A DNA stretch of 64,000 nucleotides from positions 20,130,814 to 20,194,813 of the forward strand of contig CM119269.1 in NCBI GenBank assembly GCA_051294375.1, written 5' to 3'. The notes beneath the pieces are model-generated. The model ran no database searches. It was not told the origin of the DNA and was given only the letters and a program-made list of their open reading frames with translations. Made by a program: the position numbers and the translations under genes. Positions within the stretch are counted from its first letter, which is position 1. Each line of letters starts with the position of its first letter. Positions 2,871 to 40,485 of the stretch are shown piece after piece. This DNA is from Paraspadella gotoi (lineage: Eukaryota > Animalia > Chaetognatha).

Positions 2871-5439
2871 CTCTCTCTTTTTTTTTTTTNNNNNNNNNNN
2901 NNNNNNNNNNNNNNCCATTCAAAATTTCGGTATTTAAACATTAGGTTAATTTATTTCTTCTTGTGCCTTGCAAATTTCAATAAAAAAAAAATATAAAGAT
3001 TTGTCATAACTCATAACGCAGTTCTTGAATTTTCTTTATCACTCCATGTTTGATTTTTTTTCCCTTTTGATAGCCAAGGGAACAGCATTATGAATTTATG
3101 ACATTTAGTTGTATTTTAGTTCAGTTTATTTATTATTGTTTTCATAACTGCCCTTGACTAGAATTTCTTTTTAAAACCTCTCGGATAAATAAAAAAAACA
3201 TCAAAAAATTCCAAAAATTCTGAACTCCAGCACCACAGCATTGGAAAGTTCAAAACTTTAGTTTCACCCATTCTGTAGCGGCGTGAGGGCCTCTTCTCAG
3301 GACACGTAATACAGAAGTGTCTTCATTATTGAGACGCAATTTAAGCTGGTTTTTTTCGGGAGGGAGTTTCAACGAATTGGAGGGGATAAGGACAATGGCG
3401 AATTCAGATATTCAATGGAGTATTCAGTAGAGAGAGAGCAGAGAGCCGAAGGGAGAGAGTGGAGAGAAGAGAGAGACTCTCTTGTTTCTGATGCACGTGT
3501 AAATTTCCCATCTTTGCTAAATATTTCCTTTCGTTCGTTGCCGAACATTAGTGCGAAAGTTTAAGTAAATATTAAGACAACTTTCAAAAGAATACGTACA
3601 TAAGCAAATCAAAATCAATCTACTCCAAACTATATACTTTCTTATTATTAACATTAGTGAATATATCCTAAGAAATATTAAAAAATAATGAAGTTATTGA
3701 TAAAAAACTAATCAATTGTTTTTTAAAAATAGAAGAAAAAAAACACTAATAGCAGTATTCGTTTTTTTAGCGTAAAACTTATGTTATTTCAATTATGTTT
3801 TCAACGCTTATTTTTTTTTTTACCAAATGGATTGTCTAGACTGCTTCCTTCAAAATAGAAGAGGACGAGCAAAAAGGTTAGAAAAGTTGGAAAAGAATAA
3901 TCGAAATCTCATTAATTTAATTTGTTTTTGACTGAAATTTCGAAGATGAGATCTTAACTTTTACGCCATCTCCTCATTTACGATTACTTTTTTAGTCTTA
4001 ACGATAAAACTATTCGTGCAGACTGTCGAAGCTCAAAGCCGTTGCAAATCATTCTCATTCTTTGAAGGGTCGTATGAACTATCACAAAAAAAAACAAAAT
4101 TCTCTAAGAATATCATCAACAATGTATCATGCTTAAATATCATGTTTTCTGTTAGGCGACAATTTCCACCCCAAAAAAATCGTGTGAATTGAAAAATGTG
4201 TAGTTGTGTTTTTAGGAAAATCACAAAAGTATAGATACTGGGCAAATAATTACAAATATTGAAATAATTAGCATAAGTTAATAATTCTTACTCAAGAATG
4301 CTGTTATATGGCGTGATAAAGACGAGGAGAAGTGAAAATGTTTCAGTATTTGAAAGATTCTATCTTTATTTCTTTTTTTTTACGTAAAGTAAGATTTTTT
4401 AAACGCCATATTTCGCATGGTCAACTCTTATACTATGGACATAACAAAATTACATAACAAAAGTTATATCCATAGAGGATATTTCAACTTTACTTATTTA
4501 TATTCTTTAAAAAATACTGTAAATTTATGCTCCGCCGGCGCGAGATAAAACTTATTTCTGGCTGTGACGACACGATAATACAGGAATCAATACTATAATG
4601 CCTAAACTTTAGCACGAGAAAATTAAAATTAAAATTGAACTTCAATCTATAGGTAAACCTTACAACTGCGCAAAATATGGAAATTCAGTGGGCTGGCTGT
4701 GATTGTTATAAAACCCCCACCCTCACCCCTTTAAAAATTAACTTTTTAAAAAGTTGAGCAAATAAGAGCGACTACCCATAGGCGCTTTGGCTTGGATGAG
4801 AACGGGAAATCCTGGACGAGCAAGACAAGGAAGACAATAAATGTTTTGGATATGTCTTTTTTTTGTTTTCGTTTTTGTCAGTTGGGACGAGGATTTTGTC
4901 GCCTATCGGAGCCCTCCACGCGGAACTAGGAGGTATGCACACACGGTGTATGGCGGTTTAAGGCTCGCACGCGGCGGTAAGGTTTAAAACAGCAAACCAC
5001 AACAACAATGACAACAATACAAGGAACGATAAAACGGAGCAAAACACAGACAAACAAAAAACACATCACGATGGGGGTCAAGAGCAGGAAGTCAACGAAA
5101 AAAAAAAGAGCAAACCAAAAAAGATTAACTGGGCCAAAAATCAATTTCTTTAGAGGAAATTAGGGTTGTGGATTTGAAGTTAATTAAAGTATTAAGGATG
5201 TGTTATCGCGTCGTTTGTCTTATCAATTTATTAGTCGTAACTGGGTCTGTCATGTCTCTCCCTCTTTTATTTTTTCTTCACTGTTTTTTCTTAAACTGTC
5301 TCAAATATAAGTTTTATTCTCTTCTCTTTCTTTCTTCTTTTTTTTTATCTTAAATTTTCTACTTTTTTACTTTTTTACCTTTTTCTCTTTTATTTGATTT
5401 TTTTAGCGAATCCCATACCTATTTAACAATAGGCATAAA

Positions 5440-7156: not shown

Positions 7157-8413
7157 CTCTTGTTTCAGCTCCCCAAATAAGCTGAGATTCACGTTGGCCT
7201 TTCGCCCGTCGATGATGGGGTTGGATCGCGGCAGGCGCGTTCTGCGCCTTGAGTCGTCGCCATGGTCACTGGAAAGCAGAGGTCGTCGATGGATTAATTA
7301 ATAGGTGGAGTGATTGAAAAGATTGAGTGATTACATTATTTTTTGCTGCCTATGGGACATATAATAATGGAATTTTAAATCCTTTTTAAAAAATTTTATT
7401 TAGCTAACAGTATAGCAAATTCAAATTATTTATATTCAGTAATATCCTTATAAAATCATCAAAATTTCAAATAATTTTTTTTTTTATTTTTAAGAACTAT
7501 TTGGATCGCTATGTAAAAAACTTAAGAAAACTTTATTAAAATAGTTATATGATTTTTAATGTTTAGATCACAAAAAAATGACTTAAAACGTTTTTTAAAA
7601 TATATAAGTTTCTTACTACAGAAAATAAAAAAAGTCAGGAATTTTTCACCTTTTTCCTTATTTCAAACATTGAAGATGACCAGAATTTTTATACATTGTT
7701 TTATATTTTGATTTCCAACTTTTATAAAGAATCTGAATCTTTAATAAAAATTTGTTTAAAATTATTTTTTAAAATTTACTATTTTTATAAGGATATTACG
7801 GACAAATATATAATATTTTACTATTCTATTCCCGAGATAATATGAGCCAAAATATTTTTCTGTACTATTTAATCATACTATTCGCATCTAAATATCATTG
7901 TTCGATCATTGTCAAATAAATTTTTTGTTCTTGATGTGCTCCACTCTATTAATAAATCATGAATTGATTGATTGATCGAGAAAGTTCGTATCACTCGGCT
8001 CATAAAAAGCATTTTTTTTCCATTCCAAACAATACACCCCTGTCACAAAGCGACTTTCAGCCAGAATGGCGGATGGACAGTTCGCTACGGCCAGCAAAGC
8101 CACCCAAAGAAAAAACAATGGACAAAATAATGGAATAGGGCAATGGAAACTTGGAAAGGATTAACTCTTCGAAAAAAGAAACAAAAGATTCGAATACGAA
8201 AACAACAACTAGATACAAGGCAAACCCAGAAACGAAAGCCAAACCCTAACTCACGAATTTCCGTATCCCCGGGATTGCCAGTCTGTCTGTCCGTAATGAC
8301 GACGGCTTCCTCTATGTCCCGAACTGCTCGAAAGAAATCGCCCAGGCTTTTGTCCGCTCGTGTGGTAAGGGAGACCCCCGACGAAGATCTTGGTGAGGTG
8401 TGTCTTTCTGCAT
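7157..8413 (-). CDS. RBM24: RBM24/RBM38 (SUP-12) family RRM RNA-binding protein, RRM exons 8255-8413 and 7157-7268; downstream exons not resolved
   Basis: Across small indels it reads MQKDT.LTKIFVGGLPYHT..KSLGDFF...DIEEAVVITDRQTG..RGYG.F | VTMATTQGAERACRD.NPIIDGRKANVNL.YLG, matching the RBM24/38 RRM. Donors gtgagt (8254) and gtaaac (7156). Frameshifts are probably sequence errors. Confidence 0.9.
7430..7810. repeat. AT-rich inverted-repeat element within the RBM24 intron
   Basis: taatatccttataaaa (~7440-7455) and ttttataaggatatta (~7783-7798) are reverse complements. Confidence 0.4.
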
Positions 8414-9735
8414 GATGGAACAGTGGTGGAGGACAGTGGCGTTGGATGCGATGCTGAGGCCGGTGATGCGATGGAGGAGATGGGCGGCAGTTGGTGATGA
8501 AGGCGTTGTCGACCTTCAACGTATTCTGATAATTTTTCCCTTCTTTTTTTTTTCTCCCTGACAAGATTCCTATTGGGTTTTCCGAAGTTTTTTTTTCTTT
8601 TTTTTCTAAAGGCGCTAAATTTTTTTATTTTGTTTACTTTTTACCGCGTTGTTTTAGGTTGCCGACCGGTAAAGGTAAACAAACGAGATTCGAAAGCGCG
8701 GACGAGAGAGAGTGACGGGGCGTATGAGGAAAGAGAGGGGAGATTGCAGATCACTTGTAGAAGTCTCCGCTAGTACTTTCGTTTTTGTTTTTTGTCTAAT
8801 TGATTTTTTTTGTTTTTTTTAATAATAAAAAAATGGAATAAAATTGTCGAAAAAGAAAGAAAATGGACCGAACATAGGAAAAAAAAAATAACAAATAAAA
8901 ATTCCACGGACGCGAGTTTTTTAATTAAGGTGGAGATTCTTAAATGAAACGCAAAATTAATAAATTCTAATTAAATTAAAACTTAAAAAGGATGAATTCG
9001 ATTGGTCCAAAAACCAAAAATGTAATGAATTCTGCGAGGCGTACGAATTAAAATAATATGCGTAATCATCGAGATTGGGAAGAGCACGAGAGAGAGAGAG
9101 AGATAGAGATAGAGAGAGAGAAGAGAGAGAGAGAGGAGAGAGAAGAGAGAAGAGAGACGGAGGAAGAGAGAGTGAGAGGGAAGAGGAGAGAGAGAGAGAG
9201 GCGAAAGTTGGTCATGATAGAGCGAAGAAGATGGGGAGAAACAGTCGGAGGCAAGATAAATAGAAAGGTGGGTGAGAGGTAGGAGAGAGAAGAGAAGCGA
9301 GAGAGAGAGAGAGAGAGAGAAGAGAGACGAGGAGAGAGAATCGACTCCTCCAGATAGAACAGCAGCCACCACGAGGATATTGAATGCGTTCATGGTTGAA
9401 TTTGAGGAGAAGGATGAAAGAGGAGGATGAGGAGAGGAATGAAAGAATGAGGAGGAAGAGGAAGTCTCGGTGAGTTGGCTTCCTTGGGGAGGGAAGTTGA
9501 TTATGGTGGAAGAGGAAACCCGGTGTGAGGTCGATGAGGAAATGAGGCGTCGTTGAAAAAATATGGAGATGGAAGAGGAAAATTTGAATGGCAGCTTCGA
9601 AAATAGGCGGAGTGATTGAGGAGAGGAAGCGTGGAGAAAAAGAGACGGACAGACAGATATTCGGAGGAGATGGATGAGTTTTATAGCAATGAGGCGGATA
9701 TGAAGCCCCCTACCCCGGCATTTTTTTTTATCCTG

Positions 9736-13065: not shown

Positions 13066-14605
13066 TTTCATATTTTCGTCTTATTTTAATAGATTTAGGA
13101 GTTTAATTTATCGAATTTATTTAAATATTAATTTTTTTTTTTTAAATTTGGTACCATAATTTTTTTTCAAATTTTACAATTTTCCAAAATCAACCACAAT
13201 TAATCAAACAGTTAATCAGACTATTTTATTGCAAATCAGAGGAATACTGATAGGTCAGTAATTTAGTATTAATGTTAACTCAGTCAATTGTAGATACTAC
13301 GATATTGACATAACCCGAAATATAAAATCGTCTGCTCGACCTAAACATTCTGTAATGGACGATTTCTCGAGACCAGATGAGCGTCGAATTCGACCTTCGA
13401 ACGGACGACTCGCGATCGAGGGAGGCCTCGTGGACGAGCCACTGGCGACCGAGGGAGGGCTCCGAGAACTCGATCGCTCGATCGCCTCGAGCTCAAAACC
13501 CTTTTTTACTCATTTAAATTTCTGAAGAGTGGGGACCGAATGGGAAATTGGAAGATTAAAAAATCCGTAACTATCCATACGTAGCTACGTGCAATTACGT
13601 AGGTATAGGACCTATGGGTATATATGGAAAAGTTTAACTAGCGAAACTATGTATACATGTAGGTATGGTTAGAATATTTTAATTAGAGTCTGGTGAAACT
13701 CGTTTTATGGCCGAATGAGATTTTCGTTCAAGAAGGTGGAGAGCCATTGCATTGATCGAGCTCGCTCGGTCGTCCTCTATAAACCGGTAATACTTTCAAT
13801 CTCAGGTCGATCGAAAAAACAGTAACTTCAGCATCGACCCAGACGACAGAACCAGATGGAGATGTCGGAGCAACGCGACCGGGTCGTGACTCGTCGTGAT
13901 CATGCCACGAGAGAAGACTGAGCGTTTTATAAAATTTTATTAGTTGTTCCAATTTCATTAGTTAGGGTAAATAAGCTTTTTTTCTGCGAGAGATACTTTG
14001 TGGCTTCTTCCTGTCTTTTACTTTAATCAATTAAAAAATCCTTTTTCGAGGTAAGAGCAGAATTCGAGAAACTGAAAACATGCGACTTAATTTGACATAG
14101 AATACTGAAGCCTAAGCATGCCACCTTCATTCCAAAACGGAATTTTATTTTTGAATTAATTGAGAGAAAAACTTCTACTTTTTCCGGCGACAATTTTAAC
14201 CTAAAACAGTTTTTGGTCGAATTACGAAACATGAAATGCCAATTGTATTTTTTTTTACGATGATATTTTCTTATATCTTTTTTTTTTTTTTTAATTTATG
14301 TGTTCTCCCTTTGAGAAATTTAACCCCAAGCCTAATTGTTTCCATTTTCTTTTAAAAAAGGTTACTCGTCATTTTAATCGACAATTTAAATTAGAATTAA
14401 GAAACCTTCTTCAATTGTCCTCTCGCTTTCTCTCTTTCTCTCTCTTTCTCTCCTGTCCGTTTACCTAACTCTCTCTCGGAATTTTTAAATCTAACGATGA
14501 CACGAAACTGTATTTTTTCTAGTGTCCACATTTGTACAAAGATATAAGCAGAAACAGTTCTTAAATTTAAACGTTGAATCGACGAAGCAAGTATTCAATT
14601 TCTAC

Positions 14606-14967
14606 TGTGAAGTTTCTTTTATCTTTACGCCCGTAAATTATAACGCTTGAAGCGTCGCCCGTTCAAATATCTCTAGTGAGATTAACGAAGTAAAACGAAT
14701 AATCCAGAGTTTTAAGAAGTATTTTTGTCGAGTTTAATAATGTACAAATAAAACTATAAACNNNNNNNNNNTTTCGAGTTTAATAATGTAAAAATAAAAC
14801 TATAAACTCATAATTATTCGTTTTGAGAAGTATTTTACGCGTTTAATAATGTACAAATAAAGACTATAAACTCATAATCATTCGTTTTACTTCTCACGTT
14901 GAAATATTTGAACGGGCGACGCTTCAAACGTTAGAATTTAAGGGCGTGAAGATAAGGAAACTTCACA
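14606..14967. mobile_element. MITE-like element with terminal inverted repeats and an internal tandem array (contains a small gap)
   Basis: tgtgaagtttcttttatctttacgccc...gaagcgtcgcccgttcaaatat pairs with atatttgaacgggcgacgcttcaaacg...gggcgtgaagataaggaaacttcaca. Confidence 0.6.
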
Positions 14968-15156
14968 AAACTCGTTTTCAGGTTTTCGTTTTAGAAAAGT
15001 CATTGAACTTGATAATATTAAAAAGAATAAAGAGAAAGAGAAATGACTTAACAAAGATCACTCTTTTTAAATTGGGAGGAATATTTAATAAGTAGACAAT
15101 GAACGAAAACAATTTTTTACAGCGCAAATTTAAAAAAAAACAAAAACGGTAATTCA

Positions 15157-15420
15157 AATGTGTTGCGCCGCAGCCTTCTCACGTATATTTATCGTGATAT
15201 GACATGACGGAATGACTACAATAACTTTTTAGCCTGTGTATTATTTTAGGATTTTCTGTAGGCGATGCAAGCAGTCACTTAGATTTGAGGTTTTTTCCTG
15301 ACTTAACAAATGAACATCCAACTCGAGGCAAATTATAAGCGTTTTTCACATAAGTGGAATAGACCGAAGGACAGACGTACCGACGGACGGAGCGACAGAC
15401 CGAAAACTGACTTATAGAGT
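15157..15420 (+). mobile_element. Dispersed repeat with a (GACA/GACG)-type microsatellite core, DINE-1/HINE-like; second diverged copy at ~16177-16465
   Basis: The two copies share aatgtgttgcgccgca, tgacatgac, ttttaggattt, ttaacaaatga and gacagac...gaccgaaaa(c/t)tgacttata. The class assignment is inference. Confidence 0.5.
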
Positions 15421-15799
15421 TGCTCCGCGAGTACTCGAATGGATTCGACCTTGAGCAAACCAAAGTTTCCCGACGCAATGAAATCAATTAATTTTATTTG
15501 TAATTAGGTAAGGAAACCTGTCTTCTTTTCCAAATGGCGATCCGGGAATAACTCGTTTGTCAGGTTTACCTATATGACTTTAATCATTTGTGCTTTCCTT
15601 TTTTTTAAATCTAATTTCTTAATTGTAATAATACGATTATTTTACCCGTTTTTGTGTCTTTCTTCTTGGAGGAAGGTAGGAGCAAATTTCACTTTTTTTT
15701 TCCACTGTGCTGCGCAGCGAGATTGCCTTTAAGACTGCGACGTTAAAACCTTTGATATTTACCTCCCACTGTGCATAAAATTAAAAAAAAAGGGAAACA

Positions 15800-18700
15800 A
15801 TGGCGGTTGTGACGGACACAGTGATATTTTACGTGAGGGTCGATCGTGAGATGATGAAGAACGTTAAAGACATCGAAGATCGATTTGAGAAAATTCGACG
15901 CGAAATGTTCATGATGGAAAACAACGACGACGACGACGACTTTAATAAAAAAACCATTGACCTCTCGGTGGAGGGTTGTCCGGCCCTCGCCATGATTGTG
16001 TATCATCTCAAGGTACGGTTAAGGTTAATAAGAGATGAATAAAAAAAAAAAGAGCGAGACCTTTATTTTAATTTTGTGACACTTTTTTGTTTCATTCATT
16101 TCATTCATTCGAACCAATAGTATACTAGCTCAATTATGAAAGTTGTACTTGTAACTAAAACAAGATCGGTTCATCTAATGTGTTGCGCCGCATTGACTTG
16201 CATTTCTCGTGAAATGACATGACTTGACACTACATGACATGAATACAGGATTACAAACACTTTCTTAACCGGTGTATTTTTGACATGCACTGCATCGGAA
16301 TTCCGTTATAGTTTTAGGATTTCCTGAGGGAAGCGCTAGCAGTCCTAGGATTTGATGTTTGTCTTAACAAATGAGCAACTAACTATAGGCGAATTATGTG
16401 CATTTTGAACGTAAGTGGGACAGACAGACCGATCGACCGACAGATCGACCGAAAATTGACTTATAATGTAATGGCGAGTAATGGCGGCGCAACTAAAAAT
16501 ACAAGTAAGGATTTTCGACAATATTCGTCGATACAGAATGGGAGTCACGCAACCATCAAACTTTATAACGATGGCCTCATCAACGTTGAAGTTCAGTTCA
16601 CGGAATTAAAGAATTTGACGCTGTCCGCGACTTCGAAGTATCACGCGCGATTGTTGGAGCAATTTGGGGCGAATGTCGTCAAGGAATCTAACATTCTCTG
16701 CTCAGGTTTAATCCGATCTTTGATGATAATTGATTATGAACGGTTGGTGGATTTCAGTCCACCATAGTTCGAACGAGGTAACTAGTACTTAGTACTATTT
16801 TCTCCAATTATTCTATTGTTTCAAATATATTTAAAAATATATATTTTTAGTCAGTGATGAGTCTTATCATAAAGTTCAAACGATTTTTTTTCTTTAAATT
16901 TGTTTCAAACAAAAGGTCAACATCGACAGAGGCCCTTTCCTTCTCTCAGGAATCCGGCGAGGGACGGAGTTTTGGAATTACAGCGTCCTCGACGATCACC
17001 GAATCGTGGAGACGGATTGGAACGGGATCGTCTGCGAAGTCCAAACGCCCTTCAACAACATCAAAGTCGTTTCCTCGCGAAACAATGGAAACGTCATCAT
17101 GCTGGACGAAGACGTCATGCTGGCAGGTGAACGATGGGTTTGTTTTTTTTTACTCCATTTCTTTCGTTATCTGTCTCTATCTCTTTTTCTTTCCCCTGGG
17201 ATTACAATTTTATTGCGTAACGTATTCTCGTTCAGAAAGCGATTTGACTTTCCCGAGAGTTCTTTGCGGTATTGGGGATAACCTCGCCAAGCATAAGGAA
17301 GATTACGTCGACAAGGAGGTTTTGATTTTGGGCGGAGGGATCGGGGGCAACCTGCACGAGGTATTGAAGGAGAAGCCCAAATTCGTCACAGTTGTCGAGG
17401 TAAAGTTAAGTCAGGCCGAAAAATCGTCGACGCGTAATATAATACACTCATGTACAAAAAAAAACGCGCCAATTTATAATATTAAATCCTAACGCTCTAT
17501 TAAAACAATTATATACAACAATTTTAAATTTTAAAATTTTAAATTTTTTTTAAATTTAAAATTTTATTATAATTTGTCAAGTAGTTTAAAAGATATGATT
17601 TTTTAAACTTGAGTGTCCCAAAACCAAATGGGAAAATCTACTTTTATCTAAAAGCTTCAGAATCATAGACCTATCTTTTATCGTATATTTCAATAACCTT
17701 AACATTATTATTTAGGGATATGGGGCAATCCCGTTAACTAGATAGCCCTCCAAATGTCCAGTGTAATTTTTTCATTTTTTAATCTACTATAAGGAATATA
17801 AAATATTTAAAAAAAAAAAGGATTATCAGATCTATCAGATCATCAAATTTATCAGATTTTTTTACATTCAGCTTTGTGGTACAGTACTTCATTTAAAAAA
17901 AATATTGCTCCTAAACAAATAAAATTTTAGCCAATCTTCTTATCTTTCAATAAACTTAAATTCATTTTTAAATTGTTTTTTTAAATTAAAATATATAGGG
18001 TGATTTGTAAAGTCTGGTACAACCTATATAAAAAATTATCTATTCAATCAATAAATAAGCTATCTTGCCCCTGACTCATACAAAGTTTTATTTATGACAA
18101 GCAACGATGTTTATTATAATTTTTTTGTAACTAATAAAACTTTGTTTTCTCTAAACGCAACGAAAAGAAAGTCAAAACACAACGAATAAAATGTAGGATA
18201 AAATAGTTTATCATATTGACAAGTTTACAACATCAGCGATTACCGTCGTCCTGGGTTCGGAATCTGCTTACAGCTTTGCCCAGATACATGCGAACCTAAA
18301 AAAACTACCACCAAATCGGTTTAAATTTCTTTAATCATAATTCAACTACCAACGCCCCATTGCAGCTCGACGCTGAGGTTCTCAACGCTTGCCGCCAGCA
18401 TCTCCGTGGAATCTGCTTCGACGCCTTGGACGAACTGAAAGGCCCCAACCATGAAATCATCGTGGGCGATGGCTTCAAGGTTTTGCAAGACTTCATCAAC
18501 AAAGGAAAAAAGGTGGTAAACATCTATTTTTGGCATTGATTCGCTGACTAGGGGTTGAGGGGATTAAGGATACGGATGGTTTAAAGGTGGTTTAGGGTGG
18601 TTAGGGGGTTAAGGGTGAGAGTTTGGGTAATTAGTAAAGGGTAGTAAGAATTCTAGATTTAAGTTTAATTAAAATTTTAAAGGAGAGGAATGAACATTTT

Positions 18701-19099
18701 TTTTAAAAGAAATAACTACCCTTTGATCTTTTCGCGGTGATGCTGGAAATACTTTCTGCCAATTTTTTCCAGACTATTCTTTTGATTGGTTTTATTTGGT
18801 TCACTCAGGTCGACATTCTCATCGACGACATTAACCTTGAGCAGGCTGAGGAAAACTTTGCCTTCGATCCCGTCCTCTCCGAGCGAATGTTCGATCTCGC
18901 GCTCCAGGTGCTCAAGAAACCAACGGGCAAGTTTCTCATGGGCGGAAGCGGCATCACGAACCTCAATTATCACGACAACCTCCAAGCTCTCATCACTGCT
19001 CGGGGGCTAGACTACCGGACCCATAAAGTGTATCCGCCCTCTTTCATGGGGGAATGCTATGTCACTTACGAAGCCTTTTATACGGAGATGAAGGATTAA
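15800..19099 (+). CDS. SMS: Spermine synthase-family protein with a variant cofactor motif (GGGIGG); 404 aa; exons 15800-16012, 16537-16705, 16758-16777, 16916-17126, 17236-17399, 18366-18512, 18809-19099
   Basis: All introns are GT-AG and phase-consistent; 1215 nt open. [96 protein letters not shown] and VYPPSF parallel animal spermine synthase motifs, including its N-terminal domain. Confidence 0.92.
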
Positions 19100-20802
19100 G
19101 AAAAGTGGTGCAAGCGGTCCGATCTGTACTCTTAACTAGTCTATATAAATTGGTTAACATTAGATGCTACGTGGATGGTAAAAACCTACATATGTTTTCT
19201 ATACGTTCTCTCGTCTTTTCATATTTATATTTTATTCAAAAACCTTAAAAAATCATCATCATTAGCTGAATTTTATGTTTTTTTTAAATTTTTACCAATA
19301 AAACAACAAAAATTTTTAAAAGTTGTATTAATAACTTTTATCTAACTTTTAAAGCTCTATCAGAATCTATTAAAAAAATAAAAATAAAAAAAAATTTTAA
19401 CTTTATATAGTATTAAAATAATCTTTAAATTCTTCCGTGTGCTTATTAATAAGATAATTTTTTAAAATTATTTTTATTTTCATATTCTCTAACAGTCACT
19501 TTACCATTATTTATTTGAGAGAACTTCTAGTTTTTAACCGATTCCGGCCTACTGTATACCTCACCTTTTAAAGTTTGCGTACGTACATAAAAGTTTTTTG
19601 ATATATTTCGAGAGCCCACTTTTATTTTTAAGAAAAAAATGGTTAAAAAGTTATTTACCGCAAGGGTAAAAATTTCGAGTTTAAGTTTATTTTTTTGGTT
19701 TATTTTACGAATCTTATCTTTATCTTTAAAATTACAAGAATAACAACAATGCAAATGCAATTTTTTAAAACCATAACTGTAATGATAAACAGGCCATTAT
19801 ATTTGGCAAAAGAGAAGACAAATTTTAAAACATTTTTGTAGATTTTATTAAGCAAGAAATCATCATCGTAGCCATATGCGTGCAAAACAATCAAAAAAGC
19901 GTTTTGTGCCAATTATTTTTATTTAATTTTTTATTTCAATCATTAAAATTCGTTTTCCAGTTTCGGAAGAGGCGGAGAGCATAGGGGTATGTTGTAGTGT
20001 GGGTTTTTAGCCATCAAAATGCCTTTTTTTACAGGATATTTAAAAAAAAGAGAAATAAAATTAAAACGAGCGAGAAATATTTTTTTGTTTTTGTATGTTT
20101 TTTAAAAAGACATTCAAAAAACAAAGAAGATTCGTACAAAAAAACAAAATAGGGAAACGTGAATTTTTTTCCGTTAATAATAATAGTACATTGTCCGATT
20201 AAAAAAGAAAACACATTTATAAATTCAACAAAAACGCGATCCAGGATTAACATCGAAGCGAAAAAAAAAAAACTTTTTTTTTTTTTTTTTTTGAGGCGTG
20301 GCCGCTCGAGATTAAAAATAATAAAGAAAAGAAATTAGACGAAATTTTCTTTCGTCAACAACGAATCAAACGAGCGACGTCACCTCACAAAAAAAAAAGA
20401 TTGTTTCTTTGTTTTTGTTTATTTGTAGAAAGCGATATTTCATCGGTGGCGACATCGATTTTAAAAGGGGGAGGAGGGAAAGAGGCGGAGAAAGGCGGAT
20501 GTAGGGGTATGAACCAAAAAAAAAGGGGGTGGAAGGGTGAAGGGCTGAGAAAAGGGGGTATCGGAATGGGTAGGGAAGGGGGGGGAAAGTAAAAAAAAAG
20601 AAGACAAATCTGAGAGTTTCTTTTCTTTCATAATTCCTCTTTTATTCCTGGATGCAACGAGAAGGCTGGGCGGGGGCAAGGGGGAAAAAAAAGGGTGGAG
20701 GAGAAAAGTGGAGGCTGGGCAGGCGTTAGACCGGCACAGGCGGCGTAGTAGTTCTGGGAGGAATCGCGGAGGCGACTGAAGTCTGGGCGAGATGTTTCGA
20801 TG

Positions 20803-23800
20803 CTAAAATCGTTGACCCTCATTGAAATCTTTGCCATCGAATTCCTGAATTGAAGTTAGTTCAAGGTTATAGAAAAATACGAGAGAGACAGGGGACGTTA
20901 AAGACGAGAGAGACAGGGGACGTTAAAGATGAGAGTGACAGGGACATTAAAGACGAGAGAGACAGGGGTTTAAAGACGAGAGAGACAGGACGTAAAGACG
21001 AGGGACAGGGGACGTTAAAGACGAGAGAGACAGGGACGTTAAAAGACGAGAGAGACAGGGGACGTTAAAGACGAGAGAGACAGAGGACGTTAAAGATGAG
21101 AGAGCACAGGGGACGTTAAAGATGAGAGTGACAGGGGACGTTAAAGATGAGAGAGTCAGGGGTCGTTAAAGACGAAGGACAGGGGACGTTAAAGACGAGA
21201 GAGACAGGGAATCAAAGATGAGAGAGACAGGGGAGTTAAAGATGAGAGACAGGGAGTTAAAGTGAGAGAGTCAGGGGACGTTAAAGATGAGAGAGACAGG
21301 GGACGTAAAGAGAGAGAGACAGGGGACGTTAAAGATGAGAGAGACAGGGGACGTTAAGATGAGAGAGACAGGGGACGTTAAAGACAGAGAGACAGGGGAC
21401 TTTAAAGACGAGAGTGACAGGGGATGTTAAAGATGAGAGAGTCAGGGGACGTTAAAGATGAGAGAGACAGGGGAGGTTAAAGACGAGAGAGACAGGGGAC
21501 GTTAAAGATAAGAAGAGACAGGGACGTTAAAGATGAGAGAGACAGGGGACGTTAAAGACGAGAGAGACAGGGGAGGTTAAAGACGAGAGAAGATAGACGA
21601 GAGTGACAGGGGACGTAAAGACGAGAGAGACAGGGGACGTTAAAGATGAGAGAGACAGGTGATGTTAAAGAGAGAGAGATAGGGGACGTTAAAGATGAGA
21701 GAGATAGGGACATTAAAGATGAGAGAGACAGGGACATTAAAGACGAGAGAGACAGGGACGTTAAGACGAGAGAGACAGGGGACGTTAAATACGAGAGAGA
21801 CAGGGGACGTTAAAGATGAGAGTGACAGGGGACATTAAAGACGAGAGAGACAGGGGATGTTAAAGACGAGAGAGACAGGCGACGACTTAAGACGAGAGAG
21901 ACAGGGGACATTAAAGACGAGAGAGACAGGGGACGTTAAAGATGAGAGAGACAGGGACATTAAAGACGAGAGAGACAGGGGACGTTAAAGACGAGAGTGG
22001 CAGGGGACGTTAAAGACGAGAGTGACAGGGACGTTAAAGACGAGAAGAGACAGGGACGTTAAAGACGAGAGAGTACAGGGGACATTAAAGTTAAAGAAGT
22101 TATAGAAAAAGTAAGCAAAACGAAAAGTAATAAAACATAAATGAATCGGAAAATTTAACAATAAAATGATTATGAATTCCAGAAGAAGGAATTTCTTGCA
22201 ATAAGTTTTTTTTTTTAAGTGTCCCTTTCCCAGCAAATTTTTTTCCCCCAATTGTTTTAACAAAACGACAAGGTACTTCGCCTAACTAGATCGAGTGCGC
22301 CTTAATCCCCAACACCTTGAAATTTTCTCACCTGCCTCTCTTGCCCCACCCCCGCGCCCGCTCCCGATCCCAATCCGGCGCCCGCCTCCGTCTCGTTCTT
22401 CTTCTTGATTTCCCTCGCCTCCTCCACCCCAACTTTGGTGAGCATGAGGAGAGTGAGGCCATAGCACAGCCCCGCCCAGGCGTGAAAGCCCAGGCATGTC
22501 AGGGTGATGGCGCAGGCGAGGAGGGAGAGCAACGTCACGCTGTTGAAGATGATCCCGCCGAAGATGTTGGACACGTGCTTGCCCCGACCATCGAAGGGGG
22601 ATTTTCTGTGAGGGGGGGGGGTCGCAATTTGCCATATTAAATGGGGGGAAAAAATAAAGGACTTTAATCTGCTGTTCATAACATTAAGAAAGCAGGAACG
22701 TCATACAAAATCTTAACACGGGCTTTAAGTGCGGGCAACCCGAACTTTGCACTCATAATCGATTTGGCATGCTGAGAATTTGGTGACCAACAAAGAAAAC
22801 CATTTTAGTGACTCAAATATTCGACATCTCACATATCTTACTTAATTGCAGAAAAAACGACAGATAGATAAACTACCAATCAAAGACTAATAGAGTTCAG
22901 GACCTTAAAAAGTATTTAATATGAAGTATTAAGAAATAAAATACGACGAACCTTTTTCGTTTTGATTTGGCGTGAGGCGCCGGATCGACGACAATGTCAT
23001 CGTCGAAGGCGGCGTCGGCGGCGCCGCTCGGTGAGGCCGCGCCGCCGGACGAGGCGCTGGAGGCTTTGCGCGACTTCCTGACGGCGCCGGAAGAGGCGTT
23101 AGAAGTGGCGCTGAATTTCCGACTATTCCGTCTTGGCTGCGCAGGTGAAGGAATTTGCTCTGGCGGGAAAACGTTTGAAATAGATTCCATGAAGTCAAAA
23201 TTTTGCGAATGTTCAATGATTGATTGAAAAAATAATTGAGTAAATTTGTACAAGTAGGTAAATGGCAAGTTTGATCGATGACAAAACTTGAACACAATGG
23301 TTTCTATCTCAACTAAAATCCTCACCCGCTTCCACGATGGCCTGCGTTGAGGATGTCCTCGACATCCCCTTTCCCCCAGCCTTCTTCAATACCGTCATCT
23401 CCAGTTTTGCGGCTTCCGGGGAACCTCAGGGAGCAGAGTTTTGTCGACAGGCGACGCCTGTGAAAGCCTGGCGACTAATGGAAGAGAGGGGTTGACAACG
23501 AGGGTAATGTTTTGTTTTTTGTTTTGTTTTTTGGGGGGCGGTTTTTTTTGTTTTGTTTTTTTACAAGATTCTGAATTCTGAACTTTTTTTTATTTGGATC
23601 AAGCCAGAGATTTGAATAAATCCTTGACGTTTGTGTTATCAAAGGATATGAATTTTGCCTGGGATGTTCGTTTATTCCTTCGTGATTAAATTTTTTTCAG
23701 GTGTTTTTTTTTAAACGAATAATTTAATCCTTGGTGTTTGTGTTATACAAGGATATGATTCAGGATTATAAATTTGGTCTTTTAGTAATTACATCTCATC

Positions 23801-26077
23801 AAGTAAAGTCTCCACGTGAAAAAATATTACTTTAGTCCACATTTTCCTTTTATTTTCAAGAAATTGAAGTTATTTATTAACTTTGTTTTAGTCGAATTTT
23901 TTTTCCCAAGAAGATAAAATCATCACTTAATGTCTTTTACAGAATGGCTTCGTTTATTTGATAAAAAAAGATATTTTAGCACAGAGGAATTTTGTTTTCT
24001 CCGCTTTAATTGTTTACTTTTTTACCCAAACAAATTATTATTCAAAGTATTTTTGTGAGGCGTTTTTTTTTTTAATTCAAGGCGCATTTTAAGCCACTCT
24101 TATTCATTTTTTTGGCGAAATTTTTTTTTATGTTTTTTGAAAAGAAGACAATATATTTATAACATGATGTGCGTTTCAGCATGAAACTTGATACTGAAAT
24201 TTCATCCGGAGAAATTGACACCAAGTTTAGGTTCAATTTTATTTTACTCGGTAAGTTATTGTGTAATTTTCTCTCTTTTCGTTGTTCAATAAGATCAGCA
24301 GATTCGAAAACGAAAGTTATATTAAGTAAGATAACAATATGTATTTCATTGCTATCATTTTATAACTAACTTTTTAGTTCTGAGATAGAGTTGGCAACCT
24401 CATCCTAGTTAAATGAGTGAAAGTAAAGTGTTTGTTGTTTTTTATACTTTTTTTTTTACGAAGAACCAAATCTAATTTATCTGAGTAGCAGAATTTGTCA
24501 TCTTTTTAGACGATTACAGAAAACTGATTTATATTTTGTTTAGCCAGTATGTGAAATTTTGACTAATTATAACGGGAAAATTTGACTATTGATTTCGGTT
24601 CGTGGCAGAAATCTTTTGGGTAAATCCGTTGTTCGATGGTTTTCAACTTAATCCTTAGTAATTAATTCGCGTTAAATCCAAAAATACTCGACGAATGTGA
24701 TCGTCTGTCGAAGCCGATGACTCTTCTTATTTTCGTCCATGTAATAAACAACAACCAAAACAAAAAGGAAACAAGTAAAAAAACAAAACAAAACAAAAAC
24801 GCCGAATAAAAAAATAATTGGCAGCGATGAATTTGAGCTTCGTTGTTTTCGTTATGATTGTTTTTGTTTATGAAAAGATTTTGCTTTTTCTTTCCTTTTT
24901 TTGGGGGGGTTTCGTTTTGTTTTGTTTTTTTGTTTTTGTTTTATTCGCGGCAAGAGGGGAAGTATCGAGTCATGGAGAGAGAAAGAAATGCACCATGATC
25001 ACCATAGATGAGATTATAAAAAATAAAAAAAAATCCTTTTGGAGTTCATTCATCTGCTGGCTTCACTATTCCTTCTCCACATTTCCGGGACACACTTGTG
25101 GTTTTTCCTTTTTTTTATTTTACTCTCGGTACAGAAGCTCCCACGAACCAGAGAGAGAGAGAGAGAGAGGAATCGGATGGCAAGAGGCACGGCGTTAGAA
25201 ATGGTAGGAATATTTTTTTAAATTAAAATAATTTTGTTAACCTTTTTTAAAAAAGATGAATTTTTTTTTATTTATTTCTTTATTTATTTTTTTATTTATC
25301 AAAAATATTAATTCAGAAATTATTAAAGTTTTAAGTTTAAAAATTATAATATAGGGTAGGTATAGGTATAAGGTTAGGGCTTATGTTAAGGATTTAGTTA
25401 ATTAAAGTTAGAGATTAGAGAATAATTGTAATAATAATAATAATGATGGTGATTAAGGTTAGGAATTATAAAAAAAGATAAGGTTTCGGTTAAGTATTTT
25501 GTTAAATATTAAAATTGAATATTTAGGTTAAACATTAATTTATTTTTTTTTTAAATAATGCCAAAATGGTATATATAAAGTTTAGGATGAATCAATTTTA
25601 TTTTTTATAAAGAATAGCAATTATTTAAAAATCAAATCAGATAATAGATTTAAAAAAAGCTATTTTTAACAATGAAATATTAATTAAACTAAATATTTTT
25701 ATTATTATTATTATTATTATTATTTTATTATTAATCAACTTGTAAAAAAAAGAACTATTTTAATTTTATTCTTAGAGAACGATAGGAATTTTTTACGTTC
25801 CTACGAGCAGTCGATGCCGTGCCAGAGAAGCCAGAATCCCAGTCCTTGCTTCCTCTGCAACGCACGCACTTGCAACTGGGAACTGACGACGACGACGACG
25901 ACGACGACGATCGCGGACGTTCGGTCCCGAGAAAGACGAGGATGAAAATAACAAAGACACTCTGCGATACCGGCACGGCAGTGCCGGAGCGGTGACGGGG
26001 CGTTGATGGGGTAATGTCGGGGGCCGTGATGAAACGGTATGGAGAAGGAAAGGAGCCGGGAGGGTGAAGGGGGACAT
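20803..26077 (-). CDS. Uncharacterised protein with a disordered N-terminal part and two C-terminal TM helices; exons 23326-23474, 22952-23159, 22332-22605, 20803-20844; tentative 5' exon ~25797-26077
   Basis: GC-rich exons with GT-AG ends. The last three splice in frame: EQIPSPAQPRRNSRKFS...KSPFDGRGKHVSNIFGGIIFNSVTLLSLLACAITLTCLGFHAWAGLCYGLTLLMLTKVG...EFDGKDFNEGQRF*. The 5' exons are disturbed by indels and the start is uncertain. Confidence 0.6.
20878..22090 (+). repeat. 25-bp minisatellite GA(C/T)GAGAGAGACAGGGGACGTTAAA in the last intron of the TM gene; duplicate at ~31407-32430
   Basis: Head-to-tail units with no spacers over ~1.2 kb. Confidence 0.97.
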
Positions 26078-26299
26078 CTTACCGCCGGAGGACCGGGGAC
26101 TCACCAGAGTAGTGACCAATCGAAACGAACAAAGGATCAATACGGTTCTAGGAATTAAAATGCCTGAGCGGTGCCAAGGTGAAGCTAGGGCAGTGCAGGC
26201 AGACTAAATGGATATAATATCCGAGCGTCGACGACCGCGATGGAAAAATAATGGGGAAAAAGTCGCCTTATGCAGGTGGAGAGTGATGGGGAGGGAGGG

Positions 26300-26440
<141 letters not shown>

Positions 26441-28186
26441 GTGAAAAGAAGAGAGAAAGAGAAAGAACCATGAAGAGAGAAAGAAAGTGAGTGAGCCTTT
26501 TTAATCAGATCCCAGACTTTCTTGGCTACAGCTTTTCAAACCGCAAGAATCCAGCCATGAATACCGATGGAAGTCCAGTTCGACCCGACTAATCTTTTGT
26601 TTTTTTCAAAATCGATGTTGATTCAGTTTTATGAACGTCTTTGTTTCCCTCTGGTGAATAAAACCGGCGAAAATGAAATCGTGAAAACAAGTTTGGCATT
26701 GTAGTTTCGAGTAGAAGAAAAAAAAAACCTTTAATTTTAATTTTATTTTCTTTTGTTTTACTAATCATCATTAAATTTACATAAGATTTTGGTTTTGTGC
26801 ATGGAGGAACAGACAAGCCTCTTGACCTGTCGTGCATCAACATTAAAAAATTAACGTAGCAGTTATGTACATACATTGAGAAAAAAAGTTTTTCTGGTCT
26901 CGGTGATTGGATTTTAGTTTAACGCCAATAACGATGGTGTTCCAGGAAAAAAATTCGGGAAAAGAAGAAAATTGATGTTGGCTAAAAAAAAAAATTAAAA
27001 AAAAGAAACCAAAAACATTGAATTTCGTGAGAATCGGGGAAAAATTGGATGAAAGCCGAACACAAACCGAGCTCATGGATTTCTTTTTTTTTCCCCCGTT
27101 TTAAAAATTAACGCTACTGTTCGCTCATTATTACAGTCAGTCTTATAAAAGTTGGATTCATGCTATCGATTGTCGCTTTTTTATAAAAAAAAATGTTTTT
27201 TCCTAAACAATTTAAATTTTATTTTATTCCAGTTTTAACTATTTTCCTATGTTTGTATTTCTGACTATTTTTTTATCCATCAAATCTCAAAGTAAGGTTA
27301 TATGCTTTATTACTGGAGTTGAAATTTCCAAGAGTCGAATCAAAATAAAAACAACATGGCGCGTTATCGAATACGTTTGTGTTTGCAAAGCGAGAAAAAC
27401 GTCGTTGTTTTGGTTAGTAAATGATTTTACATGCTTTTTCCATGGTGATACATGGTACATAATTTAACTCGGTATTTAGGAAGAAAAGTCGTGCCACTTT
27501 AGGTTATTTTTATGCAAAACGAACTCAACTGCAAAAACATGAATAAGCTAAGAATCAAAAGCTTAGAAACACATTTAGCATTACGTTGTATTGGCTTTCG
27601 TTATATTACTGTAAAACATCTCCAACTTTTGGTTTTTAAAATATTGAAGATATAGGGATTGTTAAAAGAAATTAACTTTATTTTCATTAAGGGCATGATC
27701 TCTTCTCCCATACTCTTGTCCAAAGTTGATTTTAAAAATCCAAATTATGAAATATACACAAAATGAAAACTCAGAACTTCCGCTTTCTACTAATCTTGTC
27801 AAACATTGCATGTGCCTTCAAAAATTAGCACCTTCTTAACAAATGATATTAAATCCTCTGCATCCAATCATCATCATCATCAAATAATCCGATCTTTCTA
27901 AACGCCTAATACCTTCCACCTCCCACCCTTATCTCGATGCGATCTCCGAAGTATCAGAACTTCCTCCCCCGACGTCTGAAACAATTTACTTTTACCTTTC
28001 TAGCAATCTCTCCTCTTTCTTTTCTCTTCTTTTCTTTCCACCTATCTTTCCTATTCCTTTCTGGTAGATGATATTTTTTTCTTCCCCTCTCATCTCTCTA
28101 TCCTTTCAACCTCGTCCTCTCACGGTCTCCTTTTATACCTCTACCCCTCTATCTCACTCCCCCATTTAAATCATCTCGATCCCCTT

Positions 28187-29141
28187 TCAAACCCCATAGT
28201 CATATTCGTACTCGTAATAATCCCTGGACTCTTTCTTCGAATCTTCTTCCCATTTTCTGAGGGCGGCGTCGCAGTTGAAATTCTCGGGAAGGGCCTCGTT
28301 GCATCGGTACACAACGTCCGACCAAATCACCTGCGATGACCGAGAGTCATTAGTTTAGTTCTAGTTATGTAGAAGCATGTTAAACCAAAAATTAGAACAA
28401 ATATAAAGCACTCGGACAGAATTGTTACCTTTTCTTGGGAGAAACAGTAAACGCCCAGACGACCGCCTAATAATAAAAGCAACATTTTTTTTTTTTCGTC
28501 TCTGAAAATACTTTTTTGACAAAAATGAAGAATTGAGACGCAATCACGGAGATAAACTATAAGTTGCTTAGAATAACAACCCCGACTTGGATATGAACAA
28601 AAAAAAAACAACAAAACTTGGTAAAAACTCATTGGACCTCTGAGGGTGGCGTCGATGACGTATCCCGTATCGGCCACCATCTCTTCCCCCTCGTAGAACT
28701 TCATCCTGATGAGACCGCAGATGGGACGATGGATGAGCTCCCATCTGTAGGCGACTCGCTGTTTCCACCCGATGTTGCGCGGGTCCTTCCAGAGCATCTT
28801 CGTCTCGCCGGGAATGTCGCCCGTGTGCCAGAGGGCGTTGCGGAGGATGCCGCCCGGGCCTTAAAAGTTGAGGCAAGGNNNNNNNNNNAGGAAGGAAATG
28901 AAAAGAGAAAAGCGGTAATCTAATTGTTGACTTATTATTTTATTATTTCATTCATTCATTCATTCATTCATTCATTCATTCATTCATTCATTCATTCATT
29001 TGCCACTATATACCAGTGAGGGACTTAACGAGTTTCAACTGTATGCCCGGTTCCCCAACCGCGCGAAAGGGGTTGGCTTGCCAGTAGGTCTGCCACTTCT
29101 TTCGCCATTGGACCAGGTAAAAACTGCCGCTGTCCTGGTAA
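28187..29141 (-). CDS. Copy of the last four thrombospondin exons (C-terminal L-lectin domain); cleaner of the two copies
   Basis: [42 protein letters not shown] | [33 protein letters not shown]...DATLR | [13 protein letters not shown] | [18 protein letters not shown]...YDYGV*. Confidence 0.85.
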
Positions 29142-29199
29142 CTTGCATGGGAAGAGGAGAAAAGGACAGGAGAAGGATTTAAAAAAAAAAAAAGAGAAG

Positions 29200-32100
29200 A
29201 GATTTCCAGACTATTCTTTTGATTGGTTTTATTTGGTTCACTCAGGTCGAACATTCTCCATCGACGACGATAACCTTGAGCAGGCTGAGGAAAAACTTTG
29301 CCTTCGATCCCGGCCTCTCGAGCGAATTTCGATCTCGCGCTCCAGGTGCTCAAGAACCAACGGGCAAAGTTCCTTCATGGGCGGAAGCGGCACACGAACG
29401 CCTCACATTATCACGAAACTACTCCAAGCTCGTCCATCACTCTGCTCGGGAGGGTCTAGACTACCGACCCATAAAGTGTATCCGCCCTCTTTCATGGGGG
29501 ATTGGCTATGTGCCACTTACGAAGGCCTTTTATACGGAGATGAGGATATAAAAAAAGTGGTGCAAGGAGGTCCGAGTATGTACTCTTAACTAGTCTAGAT
29601 ATAAAATTGAGGTTAACAATTAGATGCTACGTGGATGGTAAAAACCTACATATGTTTTCTATACGTTCTCTCGTACTTTTCAATATTTATATTTTATTCA
29701 AAAACGTTAAAAAATCATGCATCATTAGCTGAATTTTATGTTTCTTTTAAATTTTTAACTCAATAAACAACAAAATTTTTTAAAAAAGTTGTATTAATAA
29801 CTTTTATCTAACTTTTAAAGCTCTATCAGAATCTATTAAAAAACAAAAATTTTTTAAAAAATTTTTAAACTTTAATATAGTATTAAATATAATCTTTAAA
29901 TTCTTCCGTGTGCTTATTAATAGATAATTTTTTAAAATTATTTGTTTATTTTCCATATTGCTCTAACAGTTCATATTTACCATTTATTTATTTGAGCAGA
30001 ACTTCTAGTTTTTAACCGGTTCCGGCCTACTGTATACCCTCAACCTTTAAAGTTTGCGTACGTACATAAAAAAGTTTTTTGATATATTTCGAGAGCCACT
30101 CTTTATTTTTAAGAAAAAAATGTTAAAAAGTTATTTACGCGGCAAGGGTAAAATTTCGAGTTAAGTTTATTTTTTTGGGGTTATTTTAAGCGTAAATCTT
30201 ATCTTTATCTTTAAAATTACAAAGAATAACAACAATGCAAATGCACATTTTTTAAACACATAACTGTAATGATAAACAGGCCATTATAATTTGGAAAGAG
30301 AAGACAAATTTTAAAACATTTTTGTGTAGATTTTATTAAGACAAAAGAAATCATCATCGTAGGCCCTATGCGTGCAAAAACAATCAAAAAAAGCGTTTTG
30401 TGCCAATTATTTTTATTTAATTTTTTTTATTTCAACATAAAATCTCGTTTTCCAGTTTCGGAAGAGGAGAGAAGCATAGGGGTATGTTGTAGTGTGGGTT
30501 TTTTAGCCATCAAAATGCCTTTTTTTACAGATATTTAAAAAAAAGAGAAATAAAAATTTAAAACGAGCGAGAAAATATTTTTTTGTTTTTTTATGTTTTT
30601 AAAAAGACAAATTCAAAAGAACAAAGAAGAAGAGTTCGTACAAAACAAAATAGGGGAAACGTGAATTTTTTCCCGTTAATAATAATAGTAACATTGTCCG
30701 ATTAAAAAAGAAAACACATTTATAAATTCAACAAAAAAAGACGGATCCAGGATTAACATCGAAGCGAAAGAAAAAAAACTTTTTTTTTTTTTTTTGAGGC
30801 GGTGGCCGCTCGAGATTCAAAAATATAAAGAAAAGAAAATTAGACGAAATTTTCTTTGCGTCAACAACGAATCAAACGAGCGACGTCACCGTCACAAAAA
30901 AAAAAGATTGTTTCCTTTGTTTTTGTTTATATTTGTAGATAATGCGATAAATTTCAATCGGTGGCGACATCGATTTTAAAAGGGGGAGGGGGGAAAGAGG
31001 CCGGAGAAAGGCGGATGTAGGGGTATGAACCAAAAAAAGGGGGTGGAAGGGTGAAGGCTGAGAAAAGGGGGGTATCGGAATGGGTAGGGAAGGGGGGGGA
31101 AAGTAAAAAAAAAGACAAAAATCTGAGAGTTTCTTTTCTTTCATAAATTCCTGCTTTTAAATTCCTGGGATGCAAACGAGAAGGTGGGCGGGGGCCAAGG
31201 GGAAAAAAAAGGGTGGAGGAGAAAAGTGGAGGCTTGGGCAGAGCGTTAGACCGGCACAGGCGGCGTAGTAGTTTCTGGGAAGGAATCGCGGAGGCGACTG
31301 AAGTCTGGGCGAGATGTTTCGATGCTAAAAAGTCGTTGACCCTCATTGAATCGTTTGCGCATCCTGAATTCCTGAATTGAAGTTAGTTCAAGGTTAATAG
31401 AAAAATACGAGAGAGACAGGGGACGTTAAAGACGAGAGAGATCAGGGACGTTAAAGACGAGAGAGACAGGGGACGTTAAAGAGAAGAGTGACAGGGGAAC
31501 GTTAAAGATCGAGAGAGGGAATTAAAGGGAGACGTTAAAGATGAGAGTGACAGGGGACGTTAAAGACGAGAGAGACCAGGGGACGTTAAAGACGAGAGAG
31601 ACAGGGGACGTTAAAGATGAAGAGAGACAGAGGACGTTTAAAGATGAGAGAGACAGGGGACGTTAAAGATGAGAGTGACAGGGGACGTTAAAGATGAGAG
31701 AGTCAGGGGACGTTAAAGATGAGAGAGACAGGGGAACGTTAAAGACCGAGAGAGACAGGGACGTTAAAGATGAAGAGACAGGGGACGTAAAGACGAGAGA
31801 GACGAGGGGACGTTAAAGAACGAGAGAGACGGGGAGGTTAAAGACGAGAGACAGGGACTTTAAAGACGAGAGTGAAAGGGGACGTTAAAGATGAGAGAGT
31901 CAGGGGACGTTAAAGACGACGAGAGAACAGGGGAGGTTAAAGACGAGAGAGACAGGGAACGTTAAAGATAAGAGAGACAGGGGACGTTAAAGATGAGAGA
32001 GACAGGGGACGTTAAAGATAGAGAGAGAGCAGGGGACGTTAAAGACGAGAAGAGACAGGGGACGTTTAAAGACGAGAGAGGACAGGCGGACGTTAAGACG

Positions 32101-36726: not shown

Positions 36727-36804
<78 letters not shown>

Positions 36805-39800: not shown

Positions 39801-40485
39801 AAAAAAAAAACAAAAGGTACCTTTTTGTTTCGGAAATACTTGACAAAAATGAAGAATTGAGACGCAATCACGGAGATAAACTATAAGTTGCTTAGAATAA
39901 CAACCCCGACTTGGATATGAAACAAAAAAAACAACAAAACTTGGTAAAAACCCATCGACCTCTGAGGGTGGCGTGCGATGACGTATCCCGTACGGCCACC
40001 ATTCTTCCCCCTCGTAGAACTTCATCCTGATGAGACCGCAGATGGGACGATGGATGAGCTCCATCTGTAGGCGACTCGCTGTTTCCACCCGATGTTGCGC
40101 GGGTCCTTCCAGGAGCATCTTCGTCTCGCCGGGAATGTCGCCCGTGTGCCACGAGGGCGTTGCGGAGGATGCCGCCCGGGCCTTAAAAGTTGAGGCAAGG
40201 GTTGGAGGGAAAAGAAATGAAAAGAGAAAGCGGTAATCTAATTGTTGACTTATTATTTTATTATTTCATTCATTCATTATCATTCATTTGCCATCAACTA
40301 TATGATGCCACTCGTGAGGGACTTAACGAGTTTCAACTGTATGCCCGGTTCCCCAACGCGCGAAAGGGTTGGCTTGCAGTAGGTCTGCCACTTCTTTCGC
40401 ATTGGACCAGGTAAAAACTGCCGCTGTCCTGGTAACTTGCATGGGAAGAGGAGAAAAGGACAGGAGAAGGATTTAAAAAAAAAAA
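29200..40485 (+). repeat. ~11-kb tandem near-duplicate of ~18765-29190 (last SMS exon, TM gene, minisatellite, thrombospondin 3' exons), probably an assembly artefact
   Basis: Colinear throughout, with dense 1-nt indels that break all reading frames. It carries an extra ~1-kb block at ~37580-38555. Confidence 0.9.

Follow-up and report, generated by a model that had tools for sequence, protein, structure and literature searches.

The window, the whole stretch of 64,000 nucleotides that was analysed, contains a candidate gene homologous to spermine synthase (SMS), three further genes or gene pieces, and a repeat array:

15800-19099, plus strand: candidate gene, spermine synthase homologue, six exons, 386 amino acids
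15800-16012, plus strand: exon 1 (amino acids 1-71), first part of the AdoMetDC-like N-terminal (dimer) domain; the alignment to a sister protein runs from amino acid 1
16537-16705, plus strand: exon 2, remainder of the N-terminal domain; Pfam SpmSyn_N at E = 0.093, below the cut-off
16950-17126, plus strand: exon 3, central beta domain; Pfam PF17284 at E = 7e-6, human SMS 3c6k at E = 6e-5
17236-17399, plus strand: exon 4, glycine loop; Pfam PF01564 at E = 1.5e-5, 3c6k at E = 2e-8
17340-17342, plus strand: ATC codon (Ile222) at the GxG(D/E)G position; no difference in the contigs of runs X1, X2, X5 and X9
18366-18512, plus strand: exon 5; 3c6k at E = 1e-4, adenine-binding Asp276 (human Asp255) kept
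18809-19099, plus strand: exon 6, catalytic Asp297, gate loop and Glu372; stop codon TAA
about 28300-45000, minus strand: thrombospondin/COMP-like gene (Pfam TSP_C, TSP_3)
51128-52601, plus strand: gene for a small EF-hand protein resembling troponin C or calmodulin, with three or more exons
about 8300-8450, minus strand: exon pieces similar to the beginning of an RRM protein; the open reading frame tested had no Pfam match
20875-22090: degenerate tandem array with strong G and A skew

A six-exon spermine synthase homologue

The spliced open reading frame of the candidate gene is 1,161 nt long with no internal stops, and all five introns are of the GT-AG type. An earlier note on this DNA had described the gene as intact, and with the frame and every splice site unbroken this description holds; the six-exon model gives a product of 386 amino acids in place of the 404 that the note had reported. 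When exons 3, 4 and 5 were searched individually, the top PDB match of each was human spermine synthase (3C6K), and exons 3 (PF17284) and 4 (PF01564) passed the Pfam cut-offs. Exon 6 searched alone gave no Pfam and no PDB match; aligned with the closest relatives of the protein (the sisters described below), it has 30 of 88 residues alike. The fusion of an AdoMetDC-like N-terminal domain to an aminopropyltransferase domain is present, with the alignment to sister protein P0154 spanning amino acids 1 to 380. The order of domains is that of human SMS (EC 2.5.1.22; 3C6K/3C6M; PF01564, PF17284, PF17950), which belongs to a separate clade.

Several features of the introns stand apart from the coding sequence. 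Intron 3 (17126/17236) falls within the Glu codon of AESD, some three codons further downstream than the apparent break in many genomic fragments of other animals, and an intron shift is possible on this comparison. High-copy interspersed repeats lie within introns (16160-16500, 16740-16810, 17600-17760 and 18030-18160), where contig depth rises to thousands of times exon depth, and a relative of the 16160-16500 repeat is found upstream of the gene, near 15150-15420.

Elsewhere in the window, the pieces at about 8300-8450 have a motif like that of the RBM24/38 type, and an exon of the thrombospondin gene has 62 to 66% identity to named molluscs and 85 to 90% to closer relatives. An Rfam search of the whole window gave no match. 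Three segments, at 1-2862, 29203-37600 and 38556-40486, copy 13699-16552, 18766-27202 and 27156-29192, respectively. These duplicates are bounded by gaps and rich in indels, with gap letters outnumbering mismatches by 148 to 25 in one of them and by 29 to 5 in a copy of exon 6, and they include broken copies of exons 1 and 6. Their appearance suggests unpolished long-read duplicates and not paralogues; the partial copies of the candidate gene at about 2.1 kb and about 29.3 kb, being dominated by indels and bounded by gaps, were rejected as real paralogues.

The ATC codon and the spliced gene in public sequencing runs

The glycine loop reads GGGIGG, encoded by GGC GGA GGG ATC GGG GGC. Because the indel-rich duplicates mark the window as error-prone, the codon for isoleucine needed to be checked against public runs. 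Nine such runs, from one organism and three studies (P1, P2 and P3), match the stretch, and the contigs of four of the nine were compared. The codon is covered, with neither gaps nor deviating letters, by contigs of X1 and X2 (study P1; 16740-17613), of X5 (study P2; 17142-17455) and of X9 (study P3), the last of which is spliced. X1 and X2 may stem from the very sample that was assembled, whereas X5 and X9 come from other studies; that X9 derives from RNA is a guess. One record of X9 (record 28) joins exons 3, 4, 5 and 6, omitting exactly the introns of 109, 966 and 296 nt, and another (record 25) joins exons 1 and 2, omitting exactly the intron of 524 nt. The junction of exons 2 and 3 is unbridged in the rows listed; record 28 begins at 16945, consistent with an acceptor at 16950. 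Among the contigs listed there is a single coding difference, in X5 at position 19089, near the C terminus. The ATC codon is real, as the earlier note had read it at 17340-17342 and had asked to see checked against reads or RNA, and a spliced form of the gene exists. Compensating indels that mimic ATC were rejected on the exact contig matches from three studies.

The coding sequence also bears the marks of selection for protein. Compared with a sister coding sequence over 381 codons, identity is 59, 73 and 36% at codon positions 1, 2 and 3, respectively; among 200 runs of a simple neutral simulation, not one attained 20% amino-acid change free of stops, and a single run attained 30%. The sequence comparison indicates that the protein product has been maintained across a long divergence, and constraint and simulation together exclude an old decay of the gene, although they are no proof of catalysis.

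Descent from a second clade of animal spermine synthases

To place the protein, we built a tree of 67 sequences (quick search, SH-aLRT support only, midpoint root, no sequence of a plant putrescine N-methyltransferase). It divides into two clades, one of vertebrate, arthropod and cnidarian sequences with some from annelids. The other, rich in spiralians, comprises those of Lingula, molluscs, Tubulanus and Paralvinella plus a second protein from Owenia. The candidate lies within this second clade, nested in groups of 10 and 27 sequences that both have support of 100; the group of 10 includes seven Asp-type sisters (P0001, P0151-P0155 and P0282). Its end branch measures some 1.05 changes per site, against 0 to 0.44 for the sisters, and long branches can be misplaced. 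The placement is backed, however, by an insert of six amino acids ahead of the glycine loop that the candidate has in common with the sisters, and by common exon breaks, the sister genomic fragments breaking where exons 1, 2, 4 and 5 of the candidate do.

Identity between candidate and sisters is 45 to 47% overall. It is about 58% in the catalytic and about 34% in the C-terminal part, compared with 76 to 80% and 58 to 67% among the sisters themselves, and the N-terminal domain has diverged least. All the sisters retain GGGDGG and the other pocket residues that the candidate has changed. A structure model of the closest sister, used as a stand-in for the candidate (pLDDT 94 with a deep alignment, 57 with a shallow one), matched human SMS 3C6M over its full length (E = 2e-38, TM 0.76), and the clusters matched by this sister in an Atlas search were those of ordinary spermine synthases. 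For the gene as for the neighbouring thrombospondin exon, the nearest named relatives are spiralians. The earlier note's view of an animal spermine synthase scaffold is thus upheld by the nesting in the SMS tree, the top match to 3C6K and the Pfam domains. Animal SMS arose from a bacterial fusion, with a bacterial origin of its own (PMC12803844). Given this descent from an animal SMS scaffold, the change in the motif is independent of that in plants.

The tree has a wider bearing on the family. Invertebrate spermine synthases form two deep clades (P0157, P0160, P0161, P0163, P0164 and P0260); Owenia has one protein in each, and the molluscs sampled have the second clade only, some with several copies. 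In the accessible part of PMC12803844 none of the species assayed belongs to the second clade, the activity of which may so far be untested.

Changes around the ligands, with adenosine-binding and catalytic residues kept

Exon 4, searched exhaustively, yielded 157 matches, and the residue at the motif position is Asp in all 150 of those listed; three residues further on, 149 of the 150 carry Ile, Leu or Val and the remaining one Thr, compared with Asn in the candidate. We assembled 125 homologues of at least 300 amino acids from the listings of this search and of a profile search (606 matches, 120 listed), and all 125, full-length animal proteins, have Asp at the position of human Asp201. The observation that isoleucine stands where aminopropyltransferases have Asp, from which the earlier note had started, thus withstands a broad comparison. 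No second animal sequence of the I-type was found by a word search, by the exon 4 search (150 of 157 matches listed) or by the profile search (120 of 606 listed). The word search with exon 4 and a first metagenome scan found no relative. A second metagenome scan gave five loci and no I-type wherever the motif was covered: L001 and L002 have Asp, as does L004, a distant match of bacterial type, and L003 and L005 stop short of the motif. At a threshold of 80%, the transcript contig of L001, the closest Asp-type sister, matched neither the contigs of X1, X9, X2 and X7 nor the candidate's own gene, which has 56% nucleotide identity to this sister; since even that gene went unmatched, the comparison is no evidence for or against a canonical copy.

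Across the 125 homologues, 44 columns are conserved at 95% or more, and the candidate is altered at 13 of them; in leave-one-out controls the homologues were altered at 0 to 8, and 73 of the 125 at none. The altered columns make up 7 of 10 in the pocket and 6 of 34 elsewhere (Fisher p = 0.003, a descriptive value because the pocket set was picked post hoc), and the changes mostly surround the ligands. Asn163 in exon 3 corresponds to human Gln148, and Phe192 and Pro193 in exon 4 to Tyr177 and Thr178 of the amine-binding helix; each of these three residues is found in none of the 125 homologues. Also in exon 4, Ile222 corresponds to Asp201 and Asn225 to Ile204. The equivalent of Thr278 is Asn. 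The gate loop after the catalytic Asp is altered and about three residues shorter, in what is the least certain stretch of the alignment, and one residue is inserted ahead of Glu372 (human Glu353). Unchanged are the glycine loop, ribose-binding Glu241 (human Glu220), adenine-binding Asp276 (Asp255), catalytic Asp297 (Asp276), Pro349-Ser350 and the distal Glu353 (the last three in human numbering). Human Asp201 and Asp276 are active-site residues (PMC3585406) and critical for catalysis (PMC13700777).

The motifs that the earlier note had singled out, PFNNI, VVELD with the ribose Glu and DILIDD with the catalytic Asp, are all present. So is DVMLAESDLTF, but its change of Asn to Met was discarded as diagnostic, since Met occurs in 7 of 7 Asp-type sisters and 26 of 125 homologues. 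Measured against what defines a spermine synthase, the catalytic Asp and the adenosine-binding Glu and Asp are there, whereas the acidic residue of GGG(D/E)G is replaced by Ile222, and Tyr177-Thr178 and Gln148 are lost. The protein is a member of the family by descent but, the defining donor-site acid being absent, is not to be called a spermine synthase.

Partial likeness to plant putrescine N-methyltransferase

Plant putrescine N-methyltransferases (PMT; EC 2.1.1.53) have the motif string GGGIG, which the earlier note had invoked. The isoleucine in it is documented at the site of Asp103 (PMC3725402) and corresponds to Ile222 of the candidate. That a change of Asp to Ile can act as a donor switch has been demonstrated experimentally in plant spermidine synthase: loss of the motif Asp lifts the repulsion of the SAM carboxylate, and in the Datura D103I mutant spermidine synthase activity was abolished and weak methylation of putrescine was gained (PMC3725402). 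Adding Q79T and V106T to D103I raised vmax from 24 to 4338 pkat/mg, about 180-fold, whereas the D-to-I change alone in the Datura enzyme gave less than 0.04% of wild-type PMT kcat (PMC3725402). These mutants are of spermidine synthase, not spermine synthase.

The PMT sites were mapped onto the candidate by motif register, from the primer table of PMC3725402, rather than by an alignment to PMT. At the three plant mutagenesis sites (Pro193, Ile222 and Asn225) the candidate departs from its own family throughout, but only the Ile is that of PMT. The sites of Q79, V106 and L70 are occupied by Thr, Thr and His in PMT and by Pro193, Asn225 and Leu185 in the candidate, and PMT has Tyr beside the reacting amine where the candidate has Phe. 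The two are alike in having a polar residue three positions after the Ile and in their aminopropyltransferase ancestry (PMC3725402). PMT derives, however, from plant spermidine synthase, and the candidate has SMS-type domains, the insert, the intron sites and an animal AdoMetDC-like N-terminal domain. By descent the candidate is no PMT, but its mode of action is likely to be similar. The likeness to PMT is partial, the precedent comes from mutants of spermidine synthase and D-to-I alone is weak, all of which counts against the methyltransferase reading.

Other proteins widen the comparison. In the AtSPDS structure the aminopropyl amine is held by three residues (PMC6514230), of which the candidate retains the catalytic one but not the other two, and validated aminopropyltransferases have Asp or Glu at the motif (PMC11107197). 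The fungal protein-histidine methyltransferase NHMT (AN4663) has Ile322 in place of the D/E of GxG(D/E)G (PMC10349129). Like the C-terminal domain of METTL13, it uses a spermidine-synthase-like fold for methyl transfer; both act on protein substrates and are not SMS orthologues. NHMT has a membrane domain of seven helices, whereas the N terminus of the candidate is a soluble SMS domain, and METTL13, although an animal methyltransferase of the same fold, is not derived from spermine synthase. A spermidine N-methyltransferase (SMT) and the dual enzyme SPMT evolved independently in Erythroxylum (PMC9894180, PMC13567343), where an aminopropyltransferase was recruited for polyamine N-methylation on the plant spermidine synthase scaffold. 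EcSPMT of E. coca combines methylation and aminopropyl transfer in one enzyme (PMC9894180), so motif and activity do not correspond one to one. A new activity has also arisen within animal SMS: coral thermospermine synthase is a paralogue about 45% identical to its partner (PMC12803844), altered at the acceptor end and not at the donor end. No animal methyltransferase derived from SMS was found in the literature searched, mostly the main texts of freely available papers. The word "methyltransferase" is absent from the main text of PMC12803844, the supplements of which may add animal homologues.

Proposed activity and alternative explanations

The combination of donor-side changes with a retained catalytic and adenosine-binding core suggests that the protein is probably a SAM-dependent N-methyltransferase acting on an amine rather than an enzyme of aminopropyl transfer. 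The adenosine half of the cofactor would bind as in the ancestor, through the glycine loop, Glu241 and Asp276. Ile222 would do away with the acidic group by which the aminopropyl amine is anchored and the SAM carboxylate repelled, and Pro193 with a second amine anchor; in the position at which Thr aids the plant enzymes, Asn225 would serve as a polar partner. The methionine arm would then rotate, so that the S-methyl group is presented to an amine activated by Asp297. As acceptor, a polyamine appears likeliest, and the kept Glu372 would favour a di- or polyamine, which takes up about two thirds of the methyltransferase reading. Another amine or a peptide N terminus is possible, because the Tyr hydroxyl is lost and the gate loop reshaped. 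Overall, identification as a polyamine N-methyltransferase is plausible at somewhat under an even chance.

Dead regulatory paralogues occur in polyamine metabolism, and with that precedent the protein could be a dead or crippled paralogue in a non-catalytic role, either as a dimer partner of a normal spermine synthase through its N-terminal domain or as a ligand binder. The joint loss of several invariant pocket residues, the N-terminal dimer domain as the least accelerated part, and the critical role of human Asp201 in catalysis (PMC13700777) would all fit such a role. We nevertheless consider it unlikely, since the catalytic Asp, ribose Glu, adenine Asp, glycine loop and distal Glu are retained, and the codon change from Asp to Ile, at least two nucleotide steps, arrived at exactly the residue of two unrelated methyltransferases. 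There is little probability, in our judgement, that the protein is still an aminopropyltransferase, with weak or altered specificity or as a dual dcSAM/SAM enzyme like Erythroxylum SPMT. Dual enzymes are known (PMC9894180), the coral thermospermine synthase is a product switch in an animal SMS paralogue (PMC12803844), and Arabidopsis D131I retains a trace of spermidine synthase activity; that trace is, however, about 0.14% of wild type, with none detected in Datura D103I (PMC3725402), validated aminopropyltransferases have an acid at the motif (PMC11107197), and two of the three amine-holding residues of AtSPDS are lost (PMC6514230).

Two further explanations bear on the chemistry and on the sequence itself. 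Transferases of the 3-amino-3-carboxypropyl group occur in other Rossmann families, and these precedents allow an enzyme that admits SAM and transfers its long arm, giving carboxy-polyamines. The ancestral geometry attacks that arm, and loss of the Asp lifts the repulsion of the SAM carboxylate (PMC3725402). The prospect is slim: the tested D-to-I mutants yielded N-methylputrescine (PMC3725402), and the amine anchors of the long arm are those that the candidate has lost. That the gene is an artefact of sequencing or assembly, or has recently become a pseudogene, is very improbable indeed. The gap-bounded, indel-rich part-duplicates of the gene and its neighbours do show the assembly to be error-prone, but the codon is exact in contigs from three studies, one of them spliced, and frame and splice sites are intact.

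A SAM-dependent N-methyltransferase therefore remains our preferred reading. For the neofunctionalisation proposed in the earlier note, the codon, its splicing, the constraint, the SMS ancestry and the donor-switch precedent all speak in favour; the methyl-polyamine pathway that the note had attached to it is not implied by the motif, given the same Ile in a protein-histidine methyltransferase and the remodelled acceptor side. We put forward only tentatively the full proposal of a polyamine N-methyltransferase that evolved independently from spermine synthase in an invertebrate as the animal counterpart of plant PMT and SMT, through which the animal itself would make N-methylated polyamines or alkaloids derived from N-methylpyrrolinium in a way so far undescribed. 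If true, the same short path to a methyltransferase would have been followed in a different kingdom and from a different enzyme, and the protein would be a candidate for the first step toward N-methyl amines made by animals. "Spermine synthase-like" labels in invertebrates can conceal other chemistry.
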